Shown here in pieces: positions 4,956-53,567 of a stretch of 64,000 nucleotides of DNA. The notes beneath the pieces were generated by a model. It was not told the DNA's origin, did no database searches, and worked only from the letters and a program-made list of their open reading frames with translations. Position 1 is the first letter of the stretch. Each line of letters starts with the position of its first letter. The translations under genes and the position numbers were made by a program. The stretch comes from a virus. Taxonomy: Duplodnaviria > Heunggongvirae > Uroviricota > Caudoviricetes. The stretch lies in the IMG/VR virus record IMGVR_UViG_3300038393_002131, one strand, 5' to 3'.

Positions 4956-5043
4956 GGGGGGCTCCTTCGGTGGTGTCGGCCCCGCGACGCTCGGCGGGGC
5001 ATGGCCCAACCATGCCGGGCCGGGCCGACGGTGGCAACGGTTC

Positions 5044-5079
5044 CCGGCATGGTGCGACCCCCGCGCCGGAGCCATGGCG
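5044..5079 (-). terminator. terminator after the small Lys-rich gene
   Basis: GCGACCCCCGCGCC / GGCGCGGGGGTCGC 14-bp stem. Confidence 0.5.
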
Positions 5080-9865: not shown

Positions 9866-10033
9866 TCAGCGCAACGTCACGACGAGGCCGGCCAGCATCA
9901 CCACCACCGCGGCGACGACGCCGGCCAGGGCGGGCCCTCCCCCGTCCGTGCGCGGCACCGCCCGCCGCCGGGCATCCCGGGCGGCGAGCGGCACGAACAG
10001 CGCAGCGGCGGCGAGCAGGGCCAGCAGGGTCAC
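9866..10033 (-). CDS. small two-helix membrane protein (~55 aa)
   Basis: GTG at 10033 overlaps the TGA of the methyltransferase gene (GTGA); strongly hydrophobic. Confidence 0.3.
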   Translation of the reverse strand: MTLLALLAAAALFVPLAARDARRRAVPRTDGGGPALAGVVAAVVVMLAGLVVTLR

Positions 10034-34799: not shown

Positions 34800-35696
34800 T
34801 CAGCCGGTGGCCGTGTCGCCCTTCCGCTCCTCGTCGGCCTGCGGGAGGTCGAGCTCGGGGCGGGTGGCGCCGGTCGAGGCGAGGTAGTCCTCGAACCACT
34901 CGCTCACCCAGCGGCGGGTCGTGGCCGGGTTCTTCGGCGACTCGATCGTGCGGTGGATCGCGGACGCGTCCGGCTTGGCCTGCGGGTCGGCGGCCAGCAT
35001 CCGGTCGAACTCCGCTCGGGCGGCCTCCTTGAGCGGGTCCACGAGCGGCCGCAGGTTGGCCGGAGACTCCGCGGCCGCCGGCGGCGTCGCCTGGGCGGCC
35101 TTGGCCGGAGCCGGAGCCGGAGCCGGGGCTTTCGGGGCGGCCTTGCGCGGCGCCGGCGCAGCGGCCGGGGCGTTCTCGTCGCCCAGCTGGCGAAGATCGA
35201 ACTGCACCTTGTCGGGGTCGTCGGCCAGGACGTGCGCCGAGACGCCGCCGTCGATGGCGCGGCCGAGGAGGTGGATGCCGTAGGCGACGATGATCGGGAT
35301 GGCCGACACGAACCCGATGACGAGCCAGATGGGCGGCTTGGCGCCGGTGATCGCGGACAGGGCGTGGACGATGTTGCCGGCCACCGACAGCCCGAGGGCG
35401 TAGCCGAGGCCGACCCACTCCGACGCGCGCTTGCGCAGAGGCTCGTTCATCGACTGCGACCGGACGATCCCGAACGCGCAGATGATGCCGAACCCGTCGA
35501 TGGCCAGCGGGAGCAGGAACGCGATCGGTCCCATGTTGATGTACTCGCCGACCCAGCGGAGGGCCACGAAGGAGATCGCGGCCGCGATGACGGCCACGGC
35601 GACGACGATGAGGAGGGTGACGCGCTCGAGGCGCTGGTTGCGCTTGTCAGCCAGGGTGAACCCCCGGCTGGTGGGGATCTTGAAGCGGGGGGCCAT
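34800..35696 (-). CDS. integral membrane protein (4 TM helices, Ala/Pro-rich linker; DUF2637-like)
   Basis: Four hydrophobic helices in the first ~150 aa, then an APAAAPAPRKAAPKAPAPAPAPAKAAQ linker. Confidence 0.55.
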   Translation of the reverse strand: MAPRFKIPTSRGFTLADKRNQRLERVTLLIVVAVAVIAAAISFVALRWVGEYINMGPIAFLLPLAIDGFGIICAFGIVRSQSMNEPLRKRASEWVGLGYALGLSVAGNIVHALSAITGAKPPIWLVIGFVSAIPIIVAYGIHLLGRAIDGGVSAHVLADDPDKVQFDLRQLGDENAPAAAPAPRKAAPKAPAPAPAPAKAAQATPPAAAESPANLRPLVDPLKEAARAEFDRMLAADPQAKPDASAIHRTIESPKNPATTRRWVSEWFEDYLASTGATRPELDLPQADEERKGDTATG

Positions 35697-35792: not shown

Positions 35793-36752
35793 TCAGAAGT
35801 CGATCTGGTCGGCGAGGACGGTCCGCAGCGGCACCGGGACGGCCGACTCGGTGATCCGTCCGACGATGCGCGCGTCGAACATCGTGAGCAGCTGCTCCTT
35901 GTTGAGGTTCGTCGTGATGATGGTCGCCTTGCCGGCCTCGAGACGGGAGCCGACGAGGGCGAGGGTGTGGGTGTTGACGAACGACGTGACGGCCTTGGTG
36001 GGGTCGAGCGCGGCCCCGAAGTCGTCGACGATGAGGAGCTTGGCGTCGTTGAGGCGGCGCAGGTAGGCGTCCTGCTCGGCCTTCCGCTCCGGCTTGTTGG
36101 TGTAGTCCATCCGGTCGAGGAACTGCCGGTGGGTGACGAACATGGTGCGGATCGGCCGGTCGCGGCGGACCGCGTAGTGGCCCGCGGCGATGGCCGAGGA
36201 CGTCTTGCCGGTCCGGGTCGGGCCGACGAGCACGACGTTGAGCTTCACCGGGAACGGCTCGTCGAGCGCGTCGATGAACTGGCCGAGGACGCGCTTGGCG
36301 AACGGGTCCTGCACGTCGGCCAGCTGCCACGCGGCGAGGGCTGCCTTGTTCGCGGCCGTGACCGACTCGCGCCAGGCGCGCATGATGCCCTCGTTCTGAG
36401 CCTCGCGCGGGTCCTGCCACGACGCGGAGTGGTCGTCGCCGGGGAGTTTCTCCTTGGGCGTGAGGATGGCCGCGTTCTCCATGAGGTGCTTGGCCTTGGC
36501 GAGGAGGCTCGCGGCGCGGGCGTCGGCGCGGGCCTTCTCGTCGGCGATGCGCTCGGCCTCGATGCGCTCGGCCTCGGCGAGGGCCCGCTCGTACTGCTCG
36601 CGGGTCTGCGTGGTCGTGGGCAGGGCCGGGACCATCTGGCCCTCGGAGCCCTCGACGAGCGAGGTGGTGTCGGGGTGGGTCGTGTCCATCACGGGCGTGT
36701 CTGCCTTCCGGTCGCTTACGGAGGGGGTAATCGGGTCGGGCTGGGTGGTCAT
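35793..36752 (-). CDS. DnaC/IstB-like AAA+ helicase loader
   Basis: Start at MTTQPDP overlapping the upstream stop (ATGA); Walker A VGPTRTGKTS, Walker B LLIVDDFG; the Arg-rich 5' extension of the track ORF is rejected. Confidence 0.75.
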   Translation of the reverse strand: MTTQPDPITPSVSDRKADTPVMDTTHPDTTSLVEGSEGQMVPALPTTTQTREQYERALAEAERIEAERIADEKARADARAASLLAKAKHLMENAAILTPKEKLPGDDHSASWQDPREAQNEGIMRAWRESVTAANKAALAAWQLADVQDPFAKRVLGQFIDALDEPFPVKLNVVLVGPTRTGKTSSAIAAGHYAVRRDRPIRTMFVTHRQFLDRMDYTNKPERKAEQDAYLRRLNDAKLLIVDDFGAALDPTKAVTSFVNTHTLALVGSRLEAGKATIITTNLNKEQLLTMFDARIVGRITESAVPVPLRTVLADQIDF

Positions 36753-37855
36753 GAGGTGCGGCGCTGCTGCGGCTGGTCGAACCATGCTGCGGCGCGGGCC
36801 GCGGCCTCCTCCTCGGACTCTGAGGCTGCGGGGAGGGACGAGCCGTCCTTCCAGACCTCGTCGCTGTACGAACTGTGCCGGGGGCCGAAGCGGCTGTCCA
36901 CGGTCGCGAGGTTGGTGCCGCCCATCTCCTCGCGGAGCAGTCGGCGGAACTGCGGCATGGGTGGCTGCTCGGAGCCGCTCTTGCACAGGGCGAGCTTGAT
37001 CTGGTCCTCGGTTGCGCCGTCCGTCAGGGCGACGTCGACGTAGGACTTGCGCAGGGCCTCGACGATGCGGGCCTTGCCGACGATGGGTGCGCCGGTCTTC
37101 TTCTCGAACCAGTCGAGGTAGCCCCGGACGATCCGGTAGCCCTGCTCGCGCTGGGTCTCGACCTTCGCCTCGACGACGACGCCTTCGAGCGCGAGAGTGC
37201 CGTCCGCCTGTCCCTCGTCATTGCTGATGAGGGACGAGTCCCGGCCGCCCGACGCGTCAGCGGCGGGGGTAGTTGGTTCTTTGTTGGGTTCTATGGACGG
37301 TTTGGGTGACATGGGTGTCACCCCTAGTGCGTCACCGGTGTCACCCCTGGGCGTCACAGGTGTCACCCCTGAGGCCTCATCCGGCAGGGGTGACAGTTTG
37401 GCACCCCTGTTATCCACAGGGTCACCCGTACTGTCAAGCGGTGCCTCGGTCAGGGGTGTCAGATTGGCACCCCTGTTCGCTGCTGCCTTGGTCCCGCCAG
37501 CCTGTCCGTGACCGGCGAACTGGTCGCGGCGTCCCGGCTCCCGCTCGTCCTTCCACGCCTCCCGGTCCTCGTCCGTCAGGGCGATCTCGTAGGCGATCGG
37601 GCGGTACCGCTCGGGGATGCGCGGGTCGATGACCGACTGGTCACCCTCACGGATCCAGCCATCCTCGAGGAGGACCGCGATGTGCCGCTGCACGGTGCGC
37701 ACCGAGCAGTTGGCGTACTCGGCCAGGAGTTTGGCCCCGGCGTACGCGCAGGTGCCGTCCTTGTGGGCGTGGTTCGCCAGCCCGAGGAGCACCAGCTTGC
37801 GGGTGGAGTCGCCGACGTTCATCGAGAACACGGCCGACATGGCTTCGATGCTCAC
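36749..37855 (-). CDS. replication initiator-like protein with N-terminal winged-HTH; iteron cluster inside its coding sequence
   Basis: GTG at 37855 overlaps the upstream TGA; HTH KLLAEYANCSVRTVQRHIAVLLEDGWIRE; the central Pro/Val/Thr/Gly linker is encoded by GGTGTCACCCCT repeats. Confidence 0.6.
   Translation of the reverse strand: MSIEAMSAVFSMNVGDSTRKLVLLGLANHAHKDGTCAYAGAKLLAEYANCSVRTVQRHIAVLLEDGWIREGDQSVIDPRIPERYRPIAYEIALTDEDREAWKDEREPGRRDQFAGHGQAGGTKAAANRGANLTPLTEAPLDSTGDPVDNRGAKLSPLPDEASGVTPVTPRGDTGDALGVTPMSPKPSIEPNKEPTTPAADASGGRDSSLISNDEGQADGTLALEGVVVEAKVETQREQGYRIVRGYLDWFEKKTGAPIVGKARIVEALRKSYVDVALTDGATEDQIKLALCKSGSEQPPMPQFRRLLREEMGGTNLATVDSRFGPRHSSYSDEVWKDGSSLPAASESEEEAAARAAAWFDQPQQRRTS
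37305..37480. repeat. iteron-like cluster: direct and inverted copies of GGTGTCACCCCT (putative replication origin)
   Basis: Three direct copies of ~23-bp unit GCGTCAC(C/A)GGTGTCACCCCT, inverted AGGGGTGACA at ~37386, two copies of TTGGCACCCCTGTT, variants AGGGTCACCCG and CAGGGGTGTCAG. Confidence 0.6.
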
Positions 37856-38205
37856 GCGATCACCGCCAGCGCGTAGCGGTTGCGGGCCGTGGGCTGGCCG
37901 TTGCGGTACTCGAGGCGCTTCTGGCGGGTGATGACGCCAGCGCGGACCAGCTCGCCGAGGAACTGGCGGGCGCGGCCCTGGGTCATACCGGACGTTTCGG
38001 CGACCTCAATGAGGCCGAGCCAGCGGGCGCCATCCCGGGACAGGACGAGCATCGCGGCGGCGATCTTGAACGCCCCGTCGGTCAGCGGCCGCGCCACGAG
38101 AGCGGCGAGGGTGGCCGCTGCATCAACGGTCGGGGGGTTCTGGATGGGGAGGTGCGTGTCGGCTGCGAGTGCGTGTGCCGACGGGACCCTTGCGGGTACA
38201 GTCAT
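37852..38205 (-). CDS. winged-helix DNA-binding protein (~117 aa)
   Basis: Start at M96 (MTVPARV) with RBS GGTGAGGA; C-terminal wHTH-like GMTQGRARQFLGELVRAGVITRQ. Confidence 0.5.
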   Translation of the reverse strand: MTVPARVPSAHALAADTHLPIQNPPTVDAAATLAALVARPLTDGAFKIAAAMLVLSRDGARWLGLIEVAETSGMTQGRARQFLGELVRAGVITRQKRLEYRNGQPTARNRYALAVIA

Positions 38206-38842: not shown

Positions 38843-39499
38843 TCATGCCGCGGACTCCTCGCCCTGGTGCGCGACGACCGTGCCCTCGATAGTGGCGTGG
38901 GCCTCGAGCTGCCGGTCGGCGGCCGCGACGAGCGCGTCGATGTCGAAGTCGGCCGCGAGCTGGTCGAGGACCTCGTCGCGGGCGTCGCGCTTCTCCTGCG
39001 CGCCGGCGCCGGTGAACGGCGTGAACCGGGTGGTGGTCGCCGGGCCGGCCGCCTTGTAGGCCAGGCCGGGGATCGTCTCGCCGGTGTTCTTGTTGTAGAC
39101 CGTGCCGTCCTCGGCGACCGCGACGTTCTTCGGGTCGGTCATCGTCTTGAGGACGTTGCCGCGGACGGTGACCTTGACCTCGAGCGCGCCGGGGTTCGTC
39201 TCCTCGAGGTGCTCGATGAGGTCGCCCTCGTCGGCCACGTAGAACGAGCCCTTGGGCTCGACGACGGTGACGGTGCCGATGTGCACGCCGTCGTGCAGGA
39301 CCTCGATGGACTTCTGCCGGCCCTCGACGCCGGGGTTGTTGAAGCGGTCGAGCAGCTGCTCGTCGGCGGCGGCGCGCATCTTCGTCGTGAGGCCCTTGGC
39401 CTTGGACACGATGCGGTCGGCGACCATGTGCGCGAGGTACTGCTGCGCGGCCGTGGCGAAGCCGATGCCGCCGGTGCTGGGGTCGGTGACCTGAGTCAT
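38843..39499 (-). CDS. hypothetical protein (~219 aa)
   Basis: Start at M31 (MTQVTDPS); first minus-strand gene after the divergent switch region. Confidence 0.5.
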   Translation of the reverse strand: MTQVTDPSTGGIGFATAAQQYLAHMVADRIVSKAKGLTTKMRAAADEQLLDRFNNPGVEGRQKSIEVLHDGVHIGTVTVVEPKGSFYVADEGDLIEHLEETNPGALEVKVTVRGNVLKTMTDPKNVAVAEDGTVYNKNTGETIPGLAYKAAGPATTTRFTPFTGAGAQEKRDARDEVLDQLAADFDIDALVAAADRQLEAHATIEGTVVAHQGEESAA

Positions 39500-39764
39500 G
39501 GGGGTTCTCTCCCGTGTGTCGGCCGGGGACGCAATCCCGGCGTGTGGCTGCAGTTTCGCACACCCGCTCATCTCGGGCAAGGGTTGCAACTAGACACGCG
39601 GCGCGCCGACTGCACAAAGTGCACCGGCTGCAGTGCACTTTCGGCCGACACCCCTGACACCACCCCCAACGCGCAGGCGCGCGACAGGCGCGCACGCGCG
39701 CGTACGCGCGAGGAATGCATTCTGTCAACTCCGGCCCCACCCGCCCCTGCTCTACGATTGGCGC
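39500..39764. promoter_or_regulatory. divergent switch region with operator-like palindromes and GCGCGC repeats
   Basis: TGCACAAAGTGCA palindrome; inverted repeat AAAGTGCAC-N8-GTGCACTTT (~39608-39640); then CAGGCGCGCACGCGCGCGTACGCGCGA. Confidence 0.5.
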
Positions 39765-40353: not shown

Positions 40354-41949
40354 TCAGGCGTTGACCGGCTCGCCCGCGCGGTCGGCCGCGTCGACGTCGT
40401 GCGCGCCGATCAGCTCGGCCCACATGCGGAACGTGCCCTTGCCGATGCCCGCGTACGCGTCGGCCTCAGCCGTGCGTCCCTGCGCCCGCAGGCCCTCGAT
40501 GACGCCCGGGCGCATCTTGAGGGCGTGGGCCTTGAGGACGAGCGTGTCGAGGCCCGTGACGTCCTCCGCGCCCGACTCGGCGACGATGGACGCGACGAAC
40601 TGCGCAGGGGTCGCGCCGAGCACCGACGCCTGCCCCTCCAACTCGGAGAGGATGAACGTGCGCTGCAGGTCGCGCGGCTGCTTGGCGCGCGCGGTCTGCT
40701 TCGCCTGGTACTCGTTGTTCGCGCGCTGGCCCTCCGGCTCGGTGCGCGTGTCCGGCTCGGTCGCGGGCGCGCTCTGCGCGTGCACGGGCTGGTCCTGCTG
40801 TGCGCGCGCCTCGCGCGCACCCTCACCCTGCGGCGCGCGCGCGGCCTCGTCCTGCTGCGCGGGCGCACCGGCGGTCTGCTGCGCGCGCTCCCGCTCGGCG
40901 CGCGCGGCCGCGATCTGCTGGTCGACCTGCGCGCGCCACCCGGCGACGAGCTGCACGCCGTTGACCGGGGTGCCGTCGGGAGCCTGCGTGTGGATGCCTG
41001 CGAGGGTCCGCTCGCCGTACTTGGTGTAGACGTCGCGAAGTGCCGGGAGCCGGGCCTCGACGTCGTCGAGGTTGACGGCGGCCTGCACGTCACCGAGGAA
41101 CTCGTCGACGAGGATCACGTCCTCATCCGCCCCCGGGCCGTCTGCCGTGGACATGATGTTGTGCGACCGCTGGCCGACCTCGGCCGCGTCGGCGAGACCC
41201 AGCACCCGCCAGAACGCATCCATGGAGAAGTCGGGGAATGCGGTGCTCCGGTCGTAGACGCCGGTCTTGACCGGCTCCCGCCGCACCGACCGGGTGCCGG
41301 TGACGTACCACTCCCGGTACTCCGGGGCCTCGACCACGGCACCGACGTCTGACGCAAGGCCCTTCTGAGCCTTGATCTTCCAGTGACGGTCCTTGGTCGG
41401 CTTCCCGGCCGCGTCCATGACCACCTGATTCTCGAGCAGGGCTGTCACGATGACGGGGCCGTCGTGGGCGCGGAGGACGTCGACGACGTCGTACCAGTCG
41501 TTCTTGGCCTTGTTCCACAGGTCGGGGTGGACGGTGACCTCGTCGTCAGGGCTGTAGGGCTTGTTGTACTTCTCGGCGGCCTTCTTGGCGCGACGGTGTG
41601 CGGCCTCGTTGGCCTTGTCCGAGAGGAGCTCCCACCAGCGGCCGGCGCCGTCGAGGATGAGCAGGTTCGGCTTGCTCGGGTCGACGCGCGGCTGGGTGGA
41701 GGCGTCCTTGAGGGCCTCGAGCATGCCGCGGTGGGTGCCGTCGTGCAGGGCGATGTCGAAGCGGGCGCCGGGGATCAGGCCGTACTCGTCCGGGTCGTCC
41801 TCACCGCAGGACACGACGAAGCCGTGACCGACGAGCGGCGAAGCGGTCGCCTCGATCGCGGTGTAGGTCTTGCCCTTCTTCTCGCCAGCGGCGAGGAGGG
41901 TGATGGGCCAGGACGGGAGGCCGGTGGGCTTGCGGAACGTGGTTGCCAC
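40354..41949 (-). CDS. P-loop NTPase (RecA-like/AAA-type ATPase, ~531 aa)
   Basis: GTG at 41949 with RBS GGAGAA and class-I leader hairpin; Walker A AAGEKKGKT near the N-terminus, Walker-B-like LLILDGAG; acidic/Gln-rich C-terminal half. Confidence 0.55.
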   Translation of the reverse strand: MATTFRKPTGLPSWPITLLAAGEKKGKTYTAIEATASPLVGHGFVVSCGEDDPDEYGLIPGARFDIALHDGTHRGMLEALKDASTQPRVDPSKPNLLILDGAGRWWELLSDKANEAAHRRAKKAAEKYNKPYSPDDEVTVHPDLWNKAKNDWYDVVDVLRAHDGPVIVTALLENQVVMDAAGKPTKDRHWKIKAQKGLASDVGAVVEAPEYREWYVTGTRSVRREPVKTGVYDRSTAFPDFSMDAFWRVLGLADAAEVGQRSHNIMSTADGPGADEDVILVDEFLGDVQAAVNLDDVEARLPALRDVYTKYGERTLAGIHTQAPDGTPVNGVQLVAGWRAQVDQQIAAARAERERAQQTAGAPAQQDEAARAPQGEGAREARAQQDQPVHAQSAPATEPDTRTEPEGQRANNEYQAKQTARAKQPRDLQRTFILSELEGQASVLGATPAQFVASIVAESGAEDVTGLDTLVLKAHALKMRPGVIEGLRAQGRTAEADAYAGIGKGTFRMWAELIGAHDVDAADRAGEPVNA

Positions 41950-42042
41950 GGGTGGTTCTCCATCTGCTGTCGGGCCCGGGGACGCTCTCCCGGGGTACGT
42001 CTTTAGTAACTGCACGCTATCGCACATCGGCGACAGCGCCAA

Positions 42043-44327: not shown

Positions 44328-47300
44328 TCAGCGGGTGTACGTGATGCGCAGGAGCGGCTTGCCGCTGGCGGTGTGGTTGGCGAACCCGAGGTAGTTCGTG
44401 CGCGACCCGCTCACGCCGGGGCCGATGATGACGACGCGGTAGCCGTTCTTGATGACGTTCCACGACCCGACCGGCAGCGTGACCCACTTGCCCTGCCCCT
44501 CGGTGAACGAGATGTAGTTCCCGTACGAGGAGTCGGCCGAGGGTGAGACGGCCGTCGCGTTCGAGATGTTCGTGAGGTTCTGCATGCCGAACCGCTGCGA
44601 CCCGCCGCTCGAGGAGTAGGTGCTGACGCACTTCACGTAGACCTCGACCTTCTGGATGGTCGTCGAGGCGGTGATCGCGCTCGTGATCGTCTTGCCCGGC
44701 TCGGAGCCGCCCGTCGCGGGGTCGGTGAAGGCGATGTGCGCGAACTGGTTGCCGTTGGTCGACGAGTAGTAGCCGGAGAGGACCTTCCCGCTGTCGACGG
44801 CCGTGTTGATGGTGTTGTCGCCGTAGGGGCTGTTGCCGCGGCGGGTCTGGCTGCCCGATGCGGTCCAGTACGTGACGTAGGTCTTCTTCTGCGTCGTCGG
44901 GGTGACGCCACCGGTGGAGTCCGTGCCGCCGGTGTAGAGGGTGCCGCCGCCCTTGTTGCTCTGCCAGGTGTCGGGCACGTCGACCCCGAGGTCCTCGACG
45001 ATGCACTCGAGCGGGTGCGGCGCGGAGGAGCCGCCCCAGTTCTCGAGCTTGAGGTAGTCGGTGGCCCCGGCGAAGGTCGTGCCGACGGTCAGCATCATGC
45101 GGATGTTCCGGGGGGTAGACCCGGCCGCGACGAGGCTCTCCTGCATCGTGAGTGCCGGGATCGGGACGGGCACGCCGTTGGCGGGGAATGGCACGAACAC
45201 GGCCCGTGCGACCTGGCTGTTGCCGGGGATCGACGGCGTCGCGGCCGCGACGTCAGGGCCGCTCGAGATGGTGTAGCGCAGGCGGACGGTGCCGACCATT
45301 CCGGGCGCGCCGGTGTTGGCGGTGAGGGTGCCGCCGGTGAACACGAGGCGGTAGAGCCGGCCCGGCTGGTGCAGCCAGGACACCTCGTAGATGCCGTACT
45401 CGGTGCGGATCTTGTCGATGGTCAGCGCGTCGCGGCGGTAGACCTGCTGGATGGCGCCCTGCGGCAGGCGCGCCATGCGGTCGGCGTGGTCCTCACCGCC
45501 GGGCAGGATCAGCCCCGGGTAGTCGTCGAGGCCGTTCGCGGCGTCGACCGTGTTGACGACGGTCAGCCCGGTGAAGGAGCCGGCGCCCGTGTCGGACACG
45601 CCCGCGACCGCGGCCCCGTCACGGTTGACGGTGAAGTAGGCGGGCCGGTTGGACACCAGCGCGGTCGCCTCGTCGCCCTCGTTATTGAACAGGCGCAGTC
45701 CGGCCGACGTCAGCTCGGAGGCCCCGCCGGCGCCCGCCTCGACCACGGACACGTCATCGAGGTAGACGTAGGTGTCCGCGGCGACGTTGGAGACGGTGAA
45801 CCGCAGCGCGCAGAACAGGTCGGTGGCCGCCGGGTCGACGACGATGTCGCCGCTGTCGCCGCTGTAGGAGCTGCTCGTGATCGACGTGAACGCCGAGTAG
45901 GGCGGGTTCGTCACACCGTCGGACACCGCCACGGGCGCGGCCTCGTTCAGCGTCGACGAGCTCGAGCCGAAGATGGCCTCGACGGTGAGGTTGGCGACGC
46001 CGGCGCCGGACGCGCCAGCACCGTTCGACAGGGCGTACCAGTTGACCCGGTACGTCTTGCCCGCCTCCACTGCGAATGTCGACGTGTAGCCCCGGGCGAT
46101 GGTCGCCGTGCTGCCGGTGGTGTCGACGCCGATGACGAGCCGGCGCACGCCGGTGCGGGCCTTGCCGATGGACCGGTAGACGGTCGCGCCGGTGCCTGTG
46201 CGCGCCTGCCGCCACTGGTAGGTGAGGCCCTGTCCGGGGTCGGTGAAGTAGGTCAGGGCCGAGGTGTCCTCGAACCCTGGGTCGGCGACAAGGTTCGAGC
46301 GCAGCACGCCCATCTGCAGCTTGTCGAGGGTGACCGCGCCGGCCTCGATGGAGTCGGCCTTGATGCTGTTGGCCTTGATGTGCTGGGCCTCGATCGACCC
46401 GTCGACGAGGAGACGGCCAGTGCCGCGGCCGCGGACGCGGATCGCGATGGACTGCGCGGCGGTTTGCTCGGTGCCGTTGGCGTGGTTGAAGAAGATCTGC
46501 CCGACGCGCATGCGGGTGACGCCGGCGTTGGCGACCACCTTGGCGCTGTAGCGGGTCCACACCGTCGGCACGATGAGGTTCTCGACCGGGTAGAGGCCGC
46601 TGACGACACCAGTCGTCTCGGTCCCGATGGCCGTGCTGGTCGCGGCGTGGTTCCCGTCCTGATCGCGGAGCTCGACGTAGATGCGCGAGTTCGGCTTGTC
46701 GGCCTTCACCCACATCTCGAACAGGTACTCGCCACCAGATTCGGGAACGTCCCACCACAGCGACGGCGGCTGATGCGTCGACGCGCCAGCAGCGCTCTTG
46801 AACACGCCGCGGATCTCGGTCGGCCGGTCGACGGTGTCGAGGGTGAACGTGGACGTCGTCGGGAACAGGCCGCCGAGGGTGCCCCACTCCCCGGTGCCGT
46901 TCGGGACGAGGTTGGTGGCGCCGCCGATGATGAGCTGGTCGGCGCCGATGGTGTGGGCCCTGATGATGACGCCGTCGATGGTGTCGGCCTGGATCTGCCC
47001 GCCGTCGATCTTGGTCTGCCCGGAGAAGGTCCACGTGTCGACCCGGGCCTTGGTGTTGGAGGAGTCGGAGAGGGCCTGATCGATGTCGTCGAGGATCTGC
47101 TGCGGCAGGTCGCCCGTGACGAGCGGCTCGGTCGCGATCGACTGCACCGCGGACGGCATCGACCGGTTGCCGTTGACGTCGACGGCGACGAGCCGGAAGT
47201 ACCACGTCTCCCCGTACGGGAGCCCGGTCACGAGCGCGACCGCGTCGGCCTGGTAGAGCCGGTCAACGGTGATGACGCCGCCGGCGAACCCGGAGGACAG

Positions 47301-49001
47301 GCACCGCTCGACGACGACGTGGTCGAAGTCCTCGGGCATCGCCGCAGGCCCGGGCAGGCCCATGCCGTCCCAGCGGCACGACACGACCCCGGCCTTCTGC
47401 GTCAGGACCGGGTCGGTGGGCATGATCGGGGGCGTGGTGTCGACCGGCATGTAGACCGCTTCGGAGTACGTCCAGTCCGACCGGTTGCCGAAGATGTCCT
47501 TGGCGAGCACGCGCGCCCGGACGAGGTCCATGGGCTTGAGCCCGTCGACGAGCTCCTGGGTGTCCTTCGACGTCTTCGCCGCCGACCATGGCGACCCGTT
47601 GATCGCGACCTGCACCTCGTAGCCGTCGAGGTCCTCGAGGATCGTGCCGTCGGAGTCCTGATCGACGAACGGCCATGTGATCGTCGCTTTCGACCGCCAC
47701 ACCTTGCGGATGCCCTCGTCGTACAGGCTGCTGTCACCGGTGACGGTGCACGCCGCGGGCTGCACCGGCGGGATGGTGTCGCGCTGTGGTGCGCGGGGCG
47801 CGGGCAGCCGGACACCGGTGGAGCCGTTGGTGATCGCGGACACCTGTTGCGCGGTGCGCGTCGTCTGCTTGACGAACAGGTCGGCCAGCTCGATCGAGCA
47901 GGTGGGCGCCCGGAACGTGTCGCCCCAGTTCTTCGTGATCGAGCGCACGAGGAGCGGCTGGAACGTCTGCGAGTCGATCTTGGCCCGGTCGTAGTAGATC
48001 CGGTCGCCGACGAAGAAGTCGATGCCCGGCCGCGGCCAGTACTCGCCCGGCCCCGGAGGGTTCATCACCATCTCGAGGGTGAAGGCCTCCTTGAACTGCT
48101 GATGCTGCGACAGCTCACGGTTGCCGAGGTTCGTCAGCTGCGCCGTCTTGGTCAGGCGCCCGTCCGAGGCGAACCCTTCGCGCCGGCCGAACCGGGACGC
48201 GGTGCCGGTGTTGGCGACCTGCACGGTGGCCTTCTTGTCGGCGTCGCCGGCGGCGAGGACGTGGGAAAGGATGTTGCGCCGCGACCGCTTCCGCGGCGCC
48301 GACTGGACGTTCTGGCCGTACCGGAGCATGTCGCTCTTGGTGCCGAAGTACGTGTCGGGCACGAACAGGCGCAGCGTGCGGCCCTCGACGCGGGCGTCGA
48401 CCCAGCCGTCGTTAATCATGTCCGTCACCAGCGAGAGCAGGTTTGTGCCCGCGGGGTAGGTGATGTCGTACTTCTTGGGCCACGCCCGGCCGGCCGAGTC
48501 GGTCGCGGTCACGAAGTCGTACTGCAGCTCGTTGAGGCCGCCGCGGATCTTCGCCTCGTTGATGAGGACGGCCACGATGTTGCCCGGCGTCGCGTCGTCG
48601 AACTTGTACTCCGGCTTGAGGCCGTAGAGGTTCGACCCGGACGCGTTGGCGCCCTTCGGGTAGACGACAGCCTGCTCGAGCACCGACATGTAGCCGCGCG
48701 CGGAGCAGGTCACCCACCGCTTGCGGGTCAGGGCGCTGGCCGGGTCGTCCGTGTCGTCCTCGAGGATGAACAGGTCGCTCGACACGATGCCGTCCTCGTT
48801 GACCGCCAGGAACAGCTCGTCCCGGTCGAGGAAGGCGTTGTTCACCCCGTCGCGCAGGTACTTGAACGTCATCGTGCCCGGCTCGTTGTCGACCGTCTGG
48901 ATGGACAGGTCGGTGAAGTCGGGCATCAGCCCAAGAGCCGTGCCGTTTCGGTCGTACGCGCGCAGAAAGACACCCATAGTGGCCGGACAATGACCGGCCA
49001 C
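44328..49001 (-). CDS. tail-associated baseplate hub / receptor-binding minor tail protein (Tal-like, 1557 aa)
   Basis: Immediately downstream of Dit and TMP; the N-terminal ~350 aa resembles siphovirus Tal (gp27-like) domains, followed by a long beta-rich region; GTG start at 49001. Confidence 0.75.
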   Translation of the reverse strand: MAGHCPATMGVFLRAYDRNGTALGLMPDFTDLSIQTVDNEPGTMTFKYLRDGVNNAFLDRDELFLAVNEDGIVSSDLFILEDDTDDPASALTRKRWVTCSARGYMSVLEQAVVYPKGANASGSNLYGLKPEYKFDDATPGNIVAVLINEAKIRGGLNELQYDFVTATDSAGRAWPKKYDITYPAGTNLLSLVTDMINDGWVDARVEGRTLRLFVPDTYFGTKSDMLRYGQNVQSAPRKRSRRNILSHVLAAGDADKKATVQVANTGTASRFGRREGFASDGRLTKTAQLTNLGNRELSQHQQFKEAFTLEMVMNPPGPGEYWPRPGIDFFVGDRIYYDRAKIDSQTFQPLLVRSITKNWGDTFRAPTCSIELADLFVKQTTRTAQQVSAITNGSTGVRLPAPRAPQRDTIPPVQPAACTVTGDSSLYDEGIRKVWRSKATITWPFVDQDSDGTILEDLDGYEVQVAINGSPWSAAKTSKDTQELVDGLKPMDLVRARVLAKDIFGNRSDWTYSEAVYMPVDTTPPIMPTDPVLTQKAGVVSCRWDGMGLPGPAAMPEDFDHVVVERCLSSGFAGGVITVDRLYQADAVALVTGLPYGETWYFRLVAVDVNGNRSMPSAVQSIATEPLVTGDLPQQILDDIDQALSDSSNTKARVDTWTFSGQTKIDGGQIQADTIDGVIIRAHTIGADQLIIGGATNLVPNGTGEWGTLGGLFPTTSTFTLDTVDRPTEIRGVFKSAAGASTHQPPSLWWDVPESGGEYLFEMWVKADKPNSRIYVELRDQDGNHAATSTAIGTETTGVVSGLYPVENLIVPTVWTRYSAKVVANAGVTRMRVGQIFFNHANGTEQTAAQSIAIRVRGRGTGRLLVDGSIEAQHIKANSIKADSIEAGAVTLDKLQMGVLRSNLVADPGFEDTSALTYFTDPGQGLTYQWRQARTGTGATVYRSIGKARTGVRRLVIGVDTTGSTATIARGYTSTFAVEAGKTYRVNWYALSNGAGASGAGVANLTVEAIFGSSSSTLNEAAPVAVSDGVTNPPYSAFTSITSSSYSGDSGDIVVDPAATDLFCALRFTVSNVAADTYVYLDDVSVVEAGAGGASELTSAGLRLFNNEGDEATALVSNRPAYFTVNRDGAAVAGVSDTGAGSFTGLTVVNTVDAANGLDDYPGLILPGGEDHADRMARLPQGAIQQVYRRDALTIDKIRTEYGIYEVSWLHQPGRLYRLVFTGGTLTANTGAPGMVGTVRLRYTISSGPDVAAATPSIPGNSQVARAVFVPFPANGVPVPIPALTMQESLVAAGSTPRNIRMMLTVGTTFAGATDYLKLENWGGSSAPHPLECIVEDLGVDVPDTWQSNKGGGTLYTGGTDSTGGVTPTTQKKTYVTYWTASGSQTRRGNSPYGDNTINTAVDSGKVLSGYYSSTNGNQFAHIAFTDPATGGSEPGKTITSAITASTTIQKVEVYVKCVSTYSSSGGSQRFGMQNLTNISNATAVSPSADSSYGNYISFTEGQGKWVTLPVGSWNVIKNGYRVVIIGPGVSGSRTNYLGFANHTASGKPLLRITYTR

Positions 49002-49023: not shown

Positions 49024-49842
49024 TCAGCAGAGGTAGCAGCGTCGGCCGTACACGCCGATGTGCGTCTTGGCGTCGCTGTTGGTGCCCTGCAGCTGGACGC
49101 TGGGCCGGTCCCCCGGCCTGGCCGCGCTCAGCGTGAGGAACCGGCGCCCGGTCGGGTTGATGAGCGCCTGGTTCGCGGTCGTGCCAGAGGAGTCCACCGA
49201 CCACGACGCGGCCTTGAACCGGATCCATGCCCCCGACGGGATCGTGCCCATGTAGGTCAGCGAGTCGCCGTACCCGCCGTCGGTGTTGTCGATGAGCTTC
49301 GGGTTCGTGATCCGGCCGAAGATCGTGAACTCGAGCATCTCGAGCGGCGCCGTCGACGTGGCGAAGTCGTCGAGGTAGAGGGTGTGCGGCATCGTCGACG
49401 ACGGGATGGAGTCCATGCGGTAGGTCTGCACCGACTGCCACACCCCGATCGGCACCGTGAAGGTGATCGAGGCGCGGTACCCGTGCATGCCGAGGTGCGT
49501 CGGGGAGATCGTGCCGGACACCTCGACGTTGGCGTAGACGATCTCGCCACTGGACATCTGCCGCTTCACCTGCACGAGCCGGTGCGGCCGGTACACGGCC
49601 CGCAGCAGGGTCCGCCACGCGTCGTCGGCCTTCTGCCGGGTGTCGCCCATGAGCCACATCTGGATGGTGAACTTGCCCTCCCCGATCACCTTCGGGGTCC
49701 AGATCGAGCCCGACCGGTTCGCGACCGTCAGGTTGTCACCGACCATGGCTGCGACCTCGTCGAGGCCGTCGCGGATCTCCCAATCCCGCACCGTGCCGTC
49801 GGTGAGCTCCCACTCGTCGAACCAGATCCGCTCACGCGCCAT
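49024..49842 (-). CDS. distal tail protein (Dit-like minor tail protein)
   Basis: 272 aa directly after the TMP (ATGA overlap with the TMP stop), beta-rich; position-based call. Confidence 0.65.
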   Translation of the reverse strand: MARERIWFDEWELTDGTVRDWEIRDGLDEVAAMVGDNLTVANRSGSIWTPKVIGEGKFTIQMWLMGDTRQKADDAWRTLLRAVYRPHRLVQVKRQMSSGEIVYANVEVSGTISPTHLGMHGYRASITFTVPIGVWQSVQTYRMDSIPSSTMPHTLYLDDFATSTAPLEMLEFTIFGRITNPKLIDNTDGGYGDSLTYMGTIPSGAWIRFKAASWSVDSSGTTANQALINPTGRRFLTLSAARPGDRPSVQLQGTNSDAKTHIGVYGRRCYLC

Positions 49843-52800
49843 CAGTAGTCATCTCCTGCGAAAAGCCCGAACTGGCCGATGTCGCGAGTCACCTTCGTGA
49901 TCGTCGTGCTCGCCGTCTCCTGGGCGGGGTTGCTGATGAGGACCGAGCCGGGCTCGAACACGATCGAGGGGCCGCTGGCGACCGCGGGCGTAGCCGACGA
50001 CGCGCGGGGCGTGCTCGCCGTGGACGTCACCCGGCTCGCGCCGACCTGAGCCGCCTGCGGCATGAGTGCCGCACCGAACCGGTCCGCGACCTCCTCGAGG
50101 ATTGCCATGGACCGGGCCCGCTTCGCCGGGGACAGCGGAATGTAGGCCTCTCCCCCGGTTTCCGGCTCGGCCCACACTCGCCAGTCGCCGGCGTTGGCGA
50201 TCTCGGCGAGGTGGTTCTCGGTGCCGCGCGCGAACGCCTTGAGGCCCTCGCGGATGCCGCCGTTGCGGAAGAAGTCGACGATGCCGCCGTTCTTCTTGTC
50301 GAGGCCCCTGCGGTCGAGCTGCCGCTCGTTGTGGGCGACGAGGGCGCCCTGATGCCCGACGGTGCGGTAGATCGTCGTCAGCGAGACGGTCTTGTCGTGC
50401 ACCGAGTCGAGGAGACGCTTGGCGAGAGCGACCGCGGCCCGAATCGCCATCGTCTCGGCGGTGATCTGGACCTTCTTCTGCTTGGGGACATCACCGATCG
50501 CGTCAGACAGCCCGTCGACGGTCTCGGTGGTGTAGCCGTATTCCCGCGCCATGGCCTCGGCAGCGGCCTTGGAGCCGAGCATCTTCGTGGCAACGTTGAC
50601 GAACTCGCCCTTGGCCTTGTTCATCGCGGCGCGGGTGGCGTCGACGCCCTCGCCGTTCTTGAGCATGGCCTGCCAGTTGGCGATCGCGTCCGTGCGCAGC
50701 CCCTTGAGCACGCCCTGGTTCGACCGGCCGGCCTTGCTGCTCAGGTCGAGCTTGCCCGTCGCCTTGTCGACGGTCTTGACGTACTCCCCCATGTGGGACT
50801 TCGCCTCGGCGAGAGTGGCGTTGTAGGTCGCCTGCGCCGTGTCGGCGTCGACCTCCGCGTCGGAGATCCCGAGGAGGGTCGCCTTGAGCCGGACCTGCGC
50901 GTCGCGGGCGGCGTCGGTCGCCGTCGCGAGGGCATCCGCCGCGGCCTTGTAGCCGTTGACCTTCGGGGTGGCGCCGGCCGCCGCGTTGCCGTTCTCGTCG
51001 AACAGGACCTTGGCCCGCTGGGCGCCCTGCGAGGCGCGGTCCATCGAGGCGCCGAGGCCCTCCATGATGTCGGCGTCGTCCTTGACGAACAGCCAGTCGA
51101 TTCCGGCGATGTCGTCGAGCTTCTGCTTGGCGTTCTCGAGGTCGGGGCCGCCGTTGAGGGCGGCCTTGGCGAGGTCGTCGAAGTTGAAGCCGAGCTCCTG
51201 CACCCGCTTGATGTCCTCGGCCGACAGGTCACCGAGGAGGGCCTCCTTGACGGTGGCGACGCTCTGGCCGGTGAAGGCGCCGGTCTGCTTGTCGATCGTG
51301 CCGGTGAGGGCGTCGCCGATCTCCTTGGCCTTCGCCTCGTTCTCCATCCACACCGAGATCCCGGCGGCCGCGGCCGACAGCGCGATGCCCCACGGGCCGC
51401 CGAGCAGCCCCATGAGCCCGGACGCGGCCGACTTCGCCCCACTGAGGGCACCCTTGAGGCCCTTGCCCATCCCGGCGCCGCCGCCGTAGCCGAGGGCGCC
51501 GGTGAAGCCGGACATCTGGTCGCGGAACTTGCCGATGTTGCCGCCGGACTTCACCGCGGCCTCGCCGACCATCCTGATGCCGGTGGACAGGTTGCCCCAG
51601 CCGGTCGTCTTGGTGAACGCCTGCAGCTTGGGCCGCAGGAGCAGGAACGCGGACAGGGCGATGGTGGCCGCCTGGACGGGCTTGGGCCAGCCGGCGAGGA
51701 TGCCGGAGAACGACGCGAGCATGGCGAGCGTGGCACCCATGGACAGGGCGCCGCCGGCGCGGACGGTCGCGAAGAACTTGGCGACGATCGGGATGATGCC
51801 CGTGAAGAACCGCAGCGACCGGAACATCAGGAACGCGCCGAGCAGCACGCCGAGGTTCGACGCGAGCTGCGGGCTGGCCTCGAGCAGCGCCATGACGGCG
51901 GTCAGCCACTCGTTGAGGACGCCGAGGACGCTGGCGAGCGGAGACCCCGCGGCGGACAGCTCGGCGAGGATCGTCACGAGGTTGGACACGAACGTGATGA
52001 CCTGCGGGCCGAGGCTCTCGCCGAGCAGCCGCAGGCCCTTCTCGAGCGCCGGGATCAGCTTGGCGGCGATGAGGTCGAGCAGCGCGGCGGTGTGGCCGTC
52101 GGAGGACAGGCGCGCGAGGGCCTTGGCGAGCTCGACGATGACGCGGCCGGCGGCGCGCGCGACCGGCTCGACGGACTCGAACCAGTCGGCGATCTTCTGC
52201 TGGCCCTCGACGGAGGAGGTCCAGTCGTGGAAGGCCTGGATCTGCTCCTGCAGGGTGCGCAGCAGCGAGTCGCCCGTGGCGCGGCCGGCGCGGAACATGT
52301 CCGCCAGCGCGCCGCCGAGGTTCTTGGTCATGTCCCACAGCTGGGCGGCCTTCTGGTAGCCAGTCTCGAACCCGGCCGCGAGGCGGGCCTGCTCGTCGGC
52401 GGTGTCGCCGATGCCCTGGGCCCACTTGCCGAAGTCGCGCAGGACGTCGCCGAGTTTGCCCACGAGCGGCGCGGCCGCGGTCGCGAGGTTGACGGCGCCC
52501 TTGGCGGCGCCGAGGAGGGCGGAACCGAACCCGTCGACGAGGCCGCGCAGCGAGTAGAAGATCGTGTTCGCCTGCCCCTTGAACAGGGGCGTGCGCAGCC
52601 ACGCAGCGGTCTGCTTGGCCGTCTCCCCCATCTCGGTGGCGACACCCTTGAGGCCCTTGCGCAGGATCGGCATGAGGACCTTGCCGGTGGGCTCGATGTC
52701 GTCCTTGAGCGGCTTCCAGAACGCCCCCGAGACCTGCTTCTTGAGCTTGTCGAGCTCGGGTCGGAGCTTCTCGAACTCCTTGCGGATCGGGACGAGGTAC

Positions 52801-53567
52801 TCGGGGACCTTCTTCATCGGCCCGAACAGGTGACCGAACGCGATACGGGTGACACCCATCGCGGTGGCCCACCCCATGAATAGGGCGGGGGCGGCACCCA
52901 CGAGGTTGAAGATCGGCGCGAGGGAGGACCCCATGGCGACGAGGCCACCGAGGGAGCCGCCGATCGCGGCGATGGCAGGCTGGATCACCGACGCGATGCC
53001 GAGGTACACCGTCGGCATGAACGCCGACCGGGCGTTGCCCTCGGGCTTGAGCCAGCCGGGCAGCTTGAAGTCGGAGGACTTCTGCTTCTCGTCGGCCTTG
53101 ACCTTGACCTTGATCGGGTTGGCGTCGGCGATGGCCTGGCCCTTGACGCGGGCCGCGAAGATCGACCGGAGGAACCCCTCGCCGTCGGCGCGCAGCGGCA
53201 GCCGGAGCCACCCGCGGCGGCCCTTCTGCTGGGCCTCGACCTTGGCCTTCTCCTTCTCGACGGCCTCGCCGAGCCCGTCGACGACGACCTTGATCTTGGC
53301 TTCCGCGCCGGCGGCCTTGGCCGCGGCCGCCATCTTCGCCTTGAGGCCGTCGGTGTCGATCTCGACGGCGATCTTGGCGGTGACACCGGCCGCGGCCTCG
53401 TCCACGGCAGCCTTGAGCTTGTCCCGCAGCCCCGCCTTGTCGATCTCGACTTCGATCTTCGCGGCGAGGTTGCGCGTCTCCTTCTCGATCGCGGCCTTGA
53501 GCCGCTCGCCGAAGCCCTTGGTGTTGGACTCAACGGGGATCTCGAGGGTGCCTGCGACGTCACTCAC
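49842..53567 (-). CDS. tail tape measure protein
   Basis: 1241 aa, Ala/Gly/Lys-rich helical with central hydrophobic segments; GTG start with RBS GAGGGTGG; follows the frameshifted chaperone pair. Confidence 0.9.
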   Translation of the reverse strand: MSDVAGTLEIPVESNTKGFGERLKAAIEKETRNLAAKIEVEIDKAGLRDKLKAAVDEAAAGVTAKIAVEIDTDGLKAKMAAAAKAAGAEAKIKVVVDGLGEAVEKEKAKVEAQQKGRRGWLRLPLRADGEGFLRSIFAARVKGQAIADANPIKVKVKADEKQKSSDFKLPGWLKPEGNARSAFMPTVYLGIASVIQPAIAAIGGSLGGLVAMGSSLAPIFNLVGAAPALFMGWATAMGVTRIAFGHLFGPMKKVPEYLVPIRKEFEKLRPELDKLKKQVSGAFWKPLKDDIEPTGKVLMPILRKGLKGVATEMGETAKQTAAWLRTPLFKGQANTIFYSLRGLVDGFGSALLGAAKGAVNLATAAAPLVGKLGDVLRDFGKWAQGIGDTADEQARLAAGFETGYQKAAQLWDMTKNLGGALADMFRAGRATGDSLLRTLQEQIQAFHDWTSSVEGQQKIADWFESVEPVARAAGRVIVELAKALARLSSDGHTAALLDLIAAKLIPALEKGLRLLGESLGPQVITFVSNLVTILAELSAAGSPLASVLGVLNEWLTAVMALLEASPQLASNLGVLLGAFLMFRSLRFFTGIIPIVAKFFATVRAGGALSMGATLAMLASFSGILAGWPKPVQAATIALSAFLLLRPKLQAFTKTTGWGNLSTGIRMVGEAAVKSGGNIGKFRDQMSGFTGALGYGGGAGMGKGLKGALSGAKSAASGLMGLLGGPWGIALSAAAAGISVWMENEAKAKEIGDALTGTIDKQTGAFTGQSVATVKEALLGDLSAEDIKRVQELGFNFDDLAKAALNGGPDLENAKQKLDDIAGIDWLFVKDDADIMEGLGASMDRASQGAQRAKVLFDENGNAAAGATPKVNGYKAAADALATATDAARDAQVRLKATLLGISDAEVDADTAQATYNATLAEAKSHMGEYVKTVDKATGKLDLSSKAGRSNQGVLKGLRTDAIANWQAMLKNGEGVDATRAAMNKAKGEFVNVATKMLGSKAAAEAMAREYGYTTETVDGLSDAIGDVPKQKKVQITAETMAIRAAVALAKRLLDSVHDKTVSLTTIYRTVGHQGALVAHNERQLDRRGLDKKNGGIVDFFRNGGIREGLKAFARGTENHLAEIANAGDWRVWAEPETGGEAYIPLSPAKRARSMAILEEVADRFGAALMPQAAQVGASRVTSTASTPRASSATPAVASGPSIVFEPGSVLISNPAQETASTTITKVTRDIGQFGLFAGDDY

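Follow-up and report, generated by a model that had tools for sequence, protein, structure and literature searches.

A candidate theta-type replication origin within the HTH_36 initiator gene of a tailed phage

INTRODUCTION

The closest described precedents for the DNA element examined here come from two phages in which initiator-binding repeats reside within the initiator gene itself. In phage lambda, the iterons occupy nucleotides (nt) 349-433 of the 900-nt O gene at a spacing of 20-24 bp and are followed by an AT-rich tract, and gene P overlaps O by 4 nt (annotated record; PMC7466680). Each lambda iteron is an imperfect palindrome with G-tracts (PMC7466680). The gp38 protein of phage SPP1 binds the direct repeats of oriL, which lie within gene 38 and adjoin an AT-rich unwinding element, and works with the loader gp39 and the DnaB-type helicase gp40 (PMC6316719). 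In this report, we describe a comparable arrangement in a 64,000-nt stretch of DNA (hereafter the window) from IMG/VR virus record IMGVR_UViG_3300038393_002131, a member of the Caudoviricetes. Judging from its sequence and from related loci, the region at approximately 37265-37477 of the window is probably the theta-type replication origin of this phage, located inside the linker-coding part of the phage's own initiator gene.

The best reading of the locus, by analogy with these precedents, is that of an intragenic origin of the lambda O/ori type or the SPP1 gp38/oriL type that is served by an HTH_36 initiator and a DnaC/IstB-like loader. Systems of this kind have been known for decades, and what is added here is modest: evidence that the repeats are constrained as DNA, a signature shared across the family, an element with phased AACC words, and a lead on co-variation between the initiator and its repeats. 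To our knowledge, the phages of high-GC Gram-positive bacteria almost never have an annotated origin. An origin annotation was absent from all three cultured-phage records that were checked, and the relatives of the initiator in cultured phages are mostly labelled 'helix-turn-helix DNA-binding protein' or 'replication initiation protein' (among the records listed).

RESULTS AND DISCUSSION

A phased array of direct and palindromic repeats

The 12-mer GGTGTCACCCCT occurs three times on the plus strand of the window, with spacings of 23 and 22 bp (copies 1, 2 and 3 in order of ascending coordinates; Table 1), and no other exact copy is present on either strand of the 64 kb. On the gene strand, which is the minus strand, the core of each site reads GGGGTGACA. 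The sequence GCGTCAC precedes copy 2 (37329-37335) and copy 3 (37351-37357), whereas copy 1 is preceded by an inverted half-site that creates the palindrome GGGTGACA-TGGG-TGTCACCCC at 37304-37324. Two further sites of 25 nt are palindromic and have the form CAGGGGTG-N9-CACCCCTG (sites A and B in Table 1). The array therefore comprises, in the direction of the gene, two upstream palindromic sites, three direct copies that are two helical turns apart, and a terminal palindrome.

A preliminary description of this DNA had reported three direct copies of an approximately 23-bp unit, an inverted copy, two copies of a further word and additional variants, and each of these was recovered. The direct copies are exact and start at 37314, 37337 and 37359; the inverted copy is CAGGGGTGACA at 37385-37395; the further word is TTGGCACCCCTGTT, present at 37398-37411 and 37464-37477, where each copy is part of one of the 25-nt palindromic sites; and the variants include the degenerate half-site GGGTCACCCG. 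The proposal that the repeated units begin with GCGTCAC holds for copies 2 and 3 but fails for copy 1, where the inverted half-site stands. All elements then listed were found at the coordinates given, and the proposed interval (37305-37480) proved slightly too narrow, because the feature also takes in a conserved low-GC element at 37265-37303. That element with its AACC words, a DnaA-box 9-mer and the palindromic nature of the 25-nt sites had been missed.

The repeats are not clustered by chance: when the window was simulated 100 times with a first-order Markov model, in no simulation did an 11-mer occur in three or more exact copies within 100 nt. Tandem Repeats Finder (TRF) reports a 22-nt array at 37314-37384 whose score of 94 is the second highest in the window. 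No second cluster of GGGGTGACA was seen within the 64 kb.

Inverted repeats in a transcribed region could alternatively fold as an mRNA element that, for example, controls translation of the initiator or the loader. RNA from the gene strand of the repeat region does fold with a z-score of -4.9 relative to shuffled sequences, but the palindromic sites alone account for this value. Moreover, such a fold leaves the three copies of the same orientation and the AACC repeats unexplained, the arms are preserved as one identical word and not through compensatory changes, and a search of Rfam returned no matching RNA family. An explanation at the level of mRNA structure is therefore highly improbable.

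Table 1. Positions of the repeat sites, associated elements and selected genes in the window
Feature	Position	Strand	Remarks
Replication-initiator gene	36749..37855	minus	368 amino acids; GTG start, TGA stop
N-terminal winged-helix DNA-binding domain (predicted)	37511..37855	minus	residues 1-115; predicted local distance difference test (pLDDT) > 90; conserved in all relatives
Palindromic site B, CAGGGGTGTCAGATTGGCACCCCTG	37451..37475		inverted arms AGGGGTG / CACCCCT
Degenerate half-site, GGGTCACCCG	37419..37428
DnaA-box-type 9-mer, TTATCCACA	37410..37418	plus	perfect; between the two palindromic sites
Palindromic site A, CAGGGGTGACAGTTTGGCACCCCTG	37385..37409
Direct copy (copy 3)	37359..37370	minus	gene strand AGGGGTGACACC; frame gives G-V-T-P
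Direct copy (copy 2)	37337..37348	minus	same 12-mer AGGGGTGACACC; other open frame, gives R-G-D-T
Terminal palindrome	37304..37325		third direct copy along the gene (copy 1, 37314-37325) with fused inverted half-site; borders the low-GC element
Low-GC element, candidate DNA-unwinding region	37265..37303	minus	gene strand AAACCGTCCATAGAACCCAACAAAGAACCAACTACCCCC; directly beyond the terminal palindrome
C-terminal four-helix domain (predicted)	36926..37153	minus	residues 235-310; pLDDT > 90
DnaC/IstB-like AAA+ helicase-loader gene	35793..36752	minus	319 amino acids; next gene after the initiator
Small winged-helix gene	37852..38097	minus	81 amino acids; its TGA overlaps the initiator GTG start (GTGA)
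Major capsid protein	61984-63282
Tape measure	49842-53567
Tail protein	44328-49001
C5 cytosine DNA methyltransferase	10030-11727		565 amino acids
DpdA-type enzyme	4059-5075	minus	Pfam DpdA, E 4e-70; PHROG 'queuine tRNA-ribosyltransferase'

The array lies in the linker-coding part of an HTH_36 initiator gene

Residues 19-68 of the protein encoded by the host gene of the array match Pfam family HTH_36 (PF13730) with 38.4 bits against a gathering cut-off of 25 (E 1e-9). There is also a weak match to HTH_11, and no further Pfam families were detected. The protein matches the PHROG families 'replication initiation protein' (E 1e-20) and 'replication initiation O-like' (E 2e-19), and HTH_36 is the precomputed assignment for nearly all of its homologues. 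The identical protein is encoded on ten metagenome contigs, the longest of which is 134 kb.

An AlphaFold2 model built with a 19-sequence alignment divides the protein into a winged-helix domain at residues 1-115 and a four-helix domain at residues ~235-310, both predicted with confidence, and a disordered linker between them (residues 118-230). The N-terminal domain is the presumed reader of the iterons. The C-terminal domain has no Pfam match and is presumed to be the module that binds a partner or loader. The repeats correspond to nt 376-551 of the 1107-nt gene. Because they encode residues 126-184, they fall wholly inside the predicted linker.

When the N-terminal domain was compared with the PDB by Foldseek, only generic winged-helix DNA binders were returned, all with E-values of at least 0.06, and these included the centromere binders AspA and TubR and MarR-type repressors. 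A sequence search for relatives with solved structures found none at E <= 1.

The repeats are constrained as DNA

Since spacings of 22 and 23 bp are not multiples of three, the copies fall in different reading frames. Two copies of the 12-mer AGGGGTGACACC encode G-V-T-P and the other encodes R-G-D-T, and the inverted copy yields L-S-P-L. This flexibility extends to the relatives described below. Among the matches listed, the core 9-mer occurs in frame 0 in 217 instances and in frame 1 in 98 instances at 105 viral loci, and never in frame 2, where it would create a TGA stop codon. The word thus occupies every frame that coding permits.

Codon choice in the repeat zone departs strongly from that of six long phage genes that were sampled. 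Three of the seven Thr codons are ACA (1.9% in the sampled genes), three of the five Ser codons are TCA (1.6%), and none of the seven Gly codons is GGC (70%). We also compared the window gene with those of two relatives of 59-63% identity (loci L006 and L012) for retention of the same codon at identical residues. Retention is highest in the repeat zone (74-80%), lower in the folded N-terminal domain (56-66%) and lowest in the flanking linker (20-43%).

These observations bear on the possibility that the repeats are simply the DNA shadow of a low-complexity peptide linker (GVTP/RGDT) that was selected as protein or born of slippage, and that has no role in cis. Repeated short peptide motifs are indeed encoded in a segment predicted to be disordered, and coding regions of the window contain further tandem arrays of low complexity, such as those at 35093-35175 and 18336-18403. 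However, the same word of 9-12 nt, read in two frames and inverted, gives three unrelated peptides and forces the use of codons that account for only 1.6-1.9% in the sampled genes. Synonymous sites are more conserved in the repeat zone than in the folded domain, and the spacing stays at 21-24 bp and does not keep to multiples of three. In addition, GGGGTGACA arrays are present in non-coding DNA by AT-rich sequence in contigs L020, L081 and L084. We consider an origin of the repeats in peptide selection or slippage to be very unlikely; by the measures of frame, codon choice and codon retention, the array is constrained as DNA and not as protein. It is a clear case of overlapping coding and cis-acting constraints, in which a DNA word sets the linker peptide and overrides codon preference.

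The array accompanies the initiator N-terminal domain in many phages

A DNA search of cultured phages revealed no close relative, and the single informative match was a short repeat match in Bifidobacterium phage PMBT6. In this phage, a gene annotated as encoding an 'HTH domain-containing protein' carries six copies of GGGTGACATGGGTGTCACCCCGT at 22-23 bp that adjoin an AT-rich patch. We assembled a set of eleven genes comprising that of the window, that of PMBT6 and nine metagenomic homologues (37-79% protein identity). All eleven contain between three and nine copies of GGGGTGACA at gene nt ~350-610. The typical order in relatives starts with one to three palindromic sites, continues with three direct copies spaced 22-24 bp, and ends in a terminal palindrome fused to AAACC(G/A)TC…GAACC. 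Sites of the form GGGGTGACA-N-TGnCACCCC, which are equivalent to site B, precede the direct copies. The terminal TGTCACCC-AAACC junction coincides with the GC minimum of the gene in ten of the eleven cases. Gene order is likewise retained, with WhiB and at least one small open reading frame (ORF) before the initiator, an IstB-like ATPase after it, and DUF2637 further downstream.

Viral contigs were also scanned by DNA alone for three occurrences of GGGGTGACA separated by gaps of 12-16 nt (a 27-base triple pattern), which matched at least 120 contigs. In 100 of the 120 contigs listed, the ORF that contains the pattern runs forward and has an N-terminus homologous to that of the window initiator (residues 1-100), and in none of the 120 is it on the reverse strand of an initiator ORF. 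Five of the remaining 20 belong to the same family and are either truncated by the contig end or too divergent, which brings the total to about 105 of 120. Three low-GC contigs among the matches listed, two of them labelled GVMAG, look unrelated. None of the 100 ORFs among these matches shares the C-terminal domain of the window protein. Most of the listed matches are phages of approximately 50% GC that have shorter initiators, a 21-22-bp spacing and the same AACCATC…GAACCATC tail. The terminal half-site is degenerate in this majority class, and a strict terminal palindrome used as an anchor catches only 26 of 116 sequences among the matches listed. A profile anchored on the third matched copy gave a blurred consensus because copy number varies between loci. 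The GGGGTGACA word is common to phages of 47-72% GC, including PMBT6. Plasmids yielded only weak matches, and these were to the N-terminal domain (Streptomyces, Nonomuraea and Kitasatospora).

Arrays of GGGGTGACA with similar phasing were also observed at L020 4999-5053, L081 8378-8431 and L084 4085-4140 (42-47% GC). They are apparently non-coding, are followed by AT-rich sequence, and have no HTH_36 ORF that we could see around them. These arrays may be intergenic origins that use the same word.

The genes that follow the initiator differ between loci. Of 72 distinct loci among the matches listed, 32 have a DnaB helicase gene immediately after the initiator, and genes for an IstB-like protein, a G39P-like loader and a primase are found there in single loci. 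The majority class of approximately 50% GC (L016-L134), to which these 32 helicase neighbours belong, has a short and unrelated C-terminal domain in the initiator, and helicase recruitment may proceed there without a separate loader. The variation of both C-termini and downstream partners fits a modular origin-binder joined to an interchangeable recruiter.

The association of the array with the N-terminal winged-helix domain in more than 100 loci supports the assignment as an origin. It also bears on the proposal that the array lies in this gene by coincidence and is a site recognized for packaging (pac or cos) or a hotspot of recombination. Terminase small subunits also recognize phased repeats, and genes of the RecT, PDDEXK nuclease, and Gam-like or Sak4-like ATPase kinds are found nearby. 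However, the array stays with the initiator N-terminal domain while the other modules differ, the repeat word changes along with that domain, and the array is more than 20 kb from the head genes in the window. A packaging or recombination site is accordingly an explanation to which we give very little credence.

The repeat word varies with the initiator

More distant homologues use different words at the same phasing. The initiator of Arthrobacter phage Renna12 (45% identity in the N-terminal domain) is associated with four copies of GGGGTGAAC at 22 bp. That of Pseudomonas phage JBD68 (32% identity) is associated with five copies of GGGGTGCAA at 22 bp and with palindromes at both ends, and the gene order there is initiator, IstB-like gene and phage DnaB. 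A prophage of Nocardioides hankookensis (38% identity) uses the word GGGGAGACA. The phasing of direct copies is approximately 22 bp in all three. Taken together, the HTH_36 genes of cultured phages (Bifidobacterium PMBT6, Arthrobacter Renna12 and Kuleana, Pseudomonas JBD68, and Vibrio and Acinetobacter phages) are true homologues of the window gene in the N-terminal domain and have the same intragenic layout of repeats and AACC-type words, whereas the repeat word differs in the more distant ones, as do C-terminal domains and downstream partners.

The last Arg (R57) of the presumed recognition-helix motif RTVQR is kept in every class that uses GGGGTGACA or GGGGAGACA. It is replaced by Asn in Renna12 and by Tyr in JBD68. 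Such co-variation of residue and word is expected if the N-terminal domain reads the repeats. With two variant classes only, the pairing suggested by these sequences is a lead and not proof.

A low-GC element with phased AACC words and a DnaA box

The element directly beyond the terminal palindrome contains three AACC words exactly 12 bp apart. At 43-45% GC, it ties for the lowest GC content of the 64 kb even though it is coding, and at most 0.03% of 30-, 40- or 50-nt segments are as low. A similar tract recurs in the family. At 79 distinct loci among the matches listed, AACC occurs after the last repeat 1.86 times per 70 nt compared with 0.34 expected, a 5.5-fold enrichment, and spacing peaks at 11-12 bp (52 of 80 intervals). 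The mean GC fraction of the tract in these loci is 0.43, versus 0.52 for the whole locus. The TGTCACCC-AAACC junction is conserved in the class of relatives to which the window belongs. Equivalents of the AACC words are found in phages with other repeat words, namely four copies of GAACCGTCCTT at 11-12 bp in Renna12 and two copies of AACCACCAAAG at 11 bp in JBD68. On this comparative evidence, we regard 37265-37303 as a candidate unwinding element, of which the phased AACC words may be the sequence-specific part. Such runs of AACC-containing words, one helical turn apart, come after the last repeat in most members of the family, with instances at L135 2901-2945 and L136 2906-2927.

The motif TTRTCCACA has a single instance in the 64 kb when both strands are counted, the 9-mer TTATCCACA. 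Across the family, DnaA boxes are about 20-fold denser in origin zones than outside them, and ten of eleven are in one orientation. The close relatives L013, L006, L012, L016 and L032 carry TGTGGATAA or TGTGGACAA at the same place and in the same orientation as the box in the window.

Proposed mode of initiation

The features described above suggest a series of steps by which replication could begin. The N-terminal winged-helix domain of the initiator would bind the GGGGTGACA sites. It would do so as a dimer at each palindrome and with cooperativity along the phased direct copies, which would yield a nucleoprotein complex like the lambda O-some. This complex would then stress and open the adjacent low-GC AACC element. 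The C-terminal four-helix domain would recruit the DnaC/IstB-like loader, which in turn would place a DnaB-type helicase, probably that of the host, on the opened DNA. Host DnaA may assist in the subclade that includes the window, by way of the one DnaA box that lies between the palindromic sites.

We infer the recruitment of host DnaB, and relatives often encode a DnaB of their own. A tblastn search detected no DnaB-like gene in the window (best E 0.24), beyond which the phage genome extends. The absence of a detectable DnaB-like gene from the window is consistent with use of the host helicase.

Several observations weigh against the assignment of this region as the origin. Because the initiator has no detectable homology to lambda O, its function is assigned by analogy and through the names of PHROG families. 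Our literature search found no description of this origin, and matches to the motif strings were chance primers. GC skew across the window gives no information on the origin, because almost all genes lie on one strand. The GC content of the candidate unwinding element (43-45%) is modest in absolute terms for such a function. A DnaA box is present in only seven of 109 family loci among the matches listed, and the box can therefore be at most an accessory feature of a subclade. The use of an identical word by otherwise divergent initiators would also fit a site for another shared factor. Finally, since the phage genome continues beyond the window, a second origin or a phage helicase could be encoded elsewhere.

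In the most serious rival reading, the initiator or the small winged-helix protein encoded just upstream binds the sites, which serve mainly as autoregulatory operators or roadblocks, or as a partition or incompatibility site, and not as a start point. Centromere binders and repressors are also found among winged-helix proteins that act on phased repeats, and the Foldseek matches noted above include centromere binders and MarR-type repressors. Plasmid iterons double as copy-control sites, and just upstream of the initiator a second, small winged-helix gene is positioned for translational coupling to it. Autoregulation or copy control is also compatible with a role as an origin and does not exclude it. 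However, regulation alone does not call for the helically phased low-GC element that invariably comes after the array, and the array lies in the middle of a gene and not at a promoter. The family is annotated as replication initiators, its neighbours are a helicase loader or a DnaB helicase, and no ParA- or ParB-type gene was seen among the annotated genes nearby. We judge a mainly regulatory or partition function to be unlikely, and the array is more readily understood as an origin.

Comparison with lambda, SPP1 and iteron plasmids

The locus parallels the lambda origin in several respects. In both phages, the repeats occupy a central stretch of the initiator gene (nt 349-433 of 900 in lambda and 376-551 of 1107 in the window), are dyad-symmetric sequences with G-tracts, and are spaced about two helical turns apart (20-24 bp in lambda and 22-23 bp in the window). 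Both have an AT-rich or low-GC tract on the C-terminal side of the repeats. Both initiators have an N-terminal origin-binding domain, a flexible linker and a C-terminal domain that binds a partner, as far as the structure model of the window protein indicates. In each case, the next gene overlaps the stop codon of the initiator gene by 4 nt and encodes a protein that delivers the helicase, a role assigned in the window by analogy.

The differences are equally evident. The window initiator belongs to HTH_36, whereas lambda O belongs to Phage_rep_O (PF04492, E 6e-36). Membership of the window protein in the lambda O family was tried and rejected, as it has no PF04492 match and its family profile aligns to lambda O with an hhalign probability of 0.1%, although the template was a single sequence and the test is weak. 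The partner encoded in the window is an AAA+ protein of the DnaC/IstB-like type, whereas lambda P, which is not known to be an AAA+ protein, is annotated just as 'DNA replication protein'. Unlike lambda, the window has an array that mixes palindromic and direct sites, AACC words at 11-12 bp in its low-GC tract, and a DnaA box inside the array. The preliminary description had called this a lambda O/ori-type arrangement. That view is borne out by the layout, feature by feature, when set against the annotated lambda O/ori/P region, but it does not extend to homology with lambda O. Two other parts of that description agree with our analyses, namely that the repeats are in the linker-coding part of an HTH initiator gene (HTH_36 match and AlphaFold2 linker) and that a DnaC-like loader gene follows directly downstream (IstB_IS21 and PHROG_50 matches and an ATGA overlap). 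The best reading, by analogy, is that the window initiator is a functional counterpart of lambda O from a different initiator family.

The arrangement is similarly reminiscent of SPP1, in which direct repeats within the initiator's own gene, an adjoining unwinding element, a dedicated loader and a helicase of the DnaB family appear to have equivalents at this locus or in its family. A G39P-like gene lies downstream of the initiator in one relative, and a DnaB gene does so in the 32 of 72 loci noted above. SPP1 differs in that it encodes its own helicase and has a second origin, oriR, whereas neither a DnaB gene nor a second GGGGTGACA cluster was seen in the window.

Iteron plasmids of the pSC101, F, R6K, RK2 and P1 types combine phased iterons with a winged-helix initiator, at least one DnaA box and an AT-rich unwinding element. 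The window likewise has phased repeats, a predicted winged-helix initiator, a DnaA-box-type 9-mer and a low-GC element. However, plasmid origins are normally outside the rep gene, and the array in the window is inside the initiator gene. Plasmid Rep proteins have two winged-helix domains, whereas the model of the window protein has one, followed by the linker and the helical domain.

Implications for origin annotation and use

It is possible, although we would not call it likely, that HTH_36 initiators represent a very widespread and unannotated grammar of phage origins, in which GGGG-N5 iterons at two-turn phasing are followed by AACC-type words at one-turn phasing. The AACC words could then be more than AT-rich DNA, namely a sequence-specific single-strand or helicase-loading element with a role like that of the oriC 13-mers or DnaA-trios. 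If this is true, the initiator of one phage could fire or titrate the origin of an unrelated phage, with cross-activation, exclusion or satellite hijacking as outcomes. The recognition code could also be readable from natural co-variation, such as the change of the RTVQR Arg to Asn or Tyr. The family is a natural data set for recognition of iterons by winged-helix domains.

A practical signature consists of an HTH_36 N-terminal domain, GGGG-N5 repeats at 21-24 bp, and AACC words at 11-12 bp in the GC minimum of the gene. With this combination, automatic annotation of origins would become feasible for hundreds of phage and prophage genomes. The origin, initiator and loader together span about 2.1 kb and form a compact candidate replicon for vectors in Actinobacteria.

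Genetic context of the candidate origin

The loader protein matches Pfam IstB_IS21 (PF01695) with 39.1 bits against a cut-off of 24.1 (E 8e-10) and PHROG_50 'DnaC-like helicase loader' (E 3e-27). Its Walker A (GPTRTGKTS) and Walker B (LLIVDDFG) motifs are intact. The ATG of the loader gene overlaps the TGA of the initiator gene (ATGA), and from this sequence the loader gene appears to be arranged for translational coupling to the initiator.

The 81-amino-acid protein encoded upstream of the initiator has weak matches to HTH_IclR (E 3e-4) and to the PHROG 'O-like' family (E 7e-4). We considered it as a paralogue of the initiator N-terminus, but BLASTP detected no similarity between the two. A small ORF is located directly upstream of the initiator in most related loci, and the same 81-amino-acid ORF is found only in the contigs with an identical initiator protein (L003-L005). 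The product may be a regulator of the module or a competitor at the origin.

By appearance, the window is tailed-phage DNA, nearly all of which is transcribed from the minus strand (Table 1). The presence of a DpdA-family protein suggests, from its sequence matches, that the phage DNA may be modified with a 7-deazaguanine derivative. Upstream of the replication module, the minus-strand gene at 40354-42042 encodes a 562-amino-acid P-loop protein of PHROG_1366, and relatives have AAA_24, RecT or PDDEXK genes at that position. The minus-strand gene at 38843-39589 encodes a 248-amino-acid protein with a weak match to Mu Gam. From these matches, the two genes look like a recombination module that adjoins the origin.

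The DUF2637 membrane protein gene at 34800-35696 (minus strand), which carries the PHROG family label 'excisionase', recurs downstream of the initiator-loader pair in related loci. Within it, a repeat at 35093-35175 (two copies of a 42-nt unit, or four of GCCGGA) encodes an Ala-Pro-rich segment and has the highest tandem-repeat score in the window. Another tandem array at 18336-18403 is composed of about six copies of GGTGCGCGCGT with an 11-nt period (TRF score 74), and it is positioned just within the 5′ end of a minus-strand ORF with a start near 18423. The array resembles low-complexity coding sequence rich in His, Ala and Arg, although its 11-nt period is not a multiple of three.

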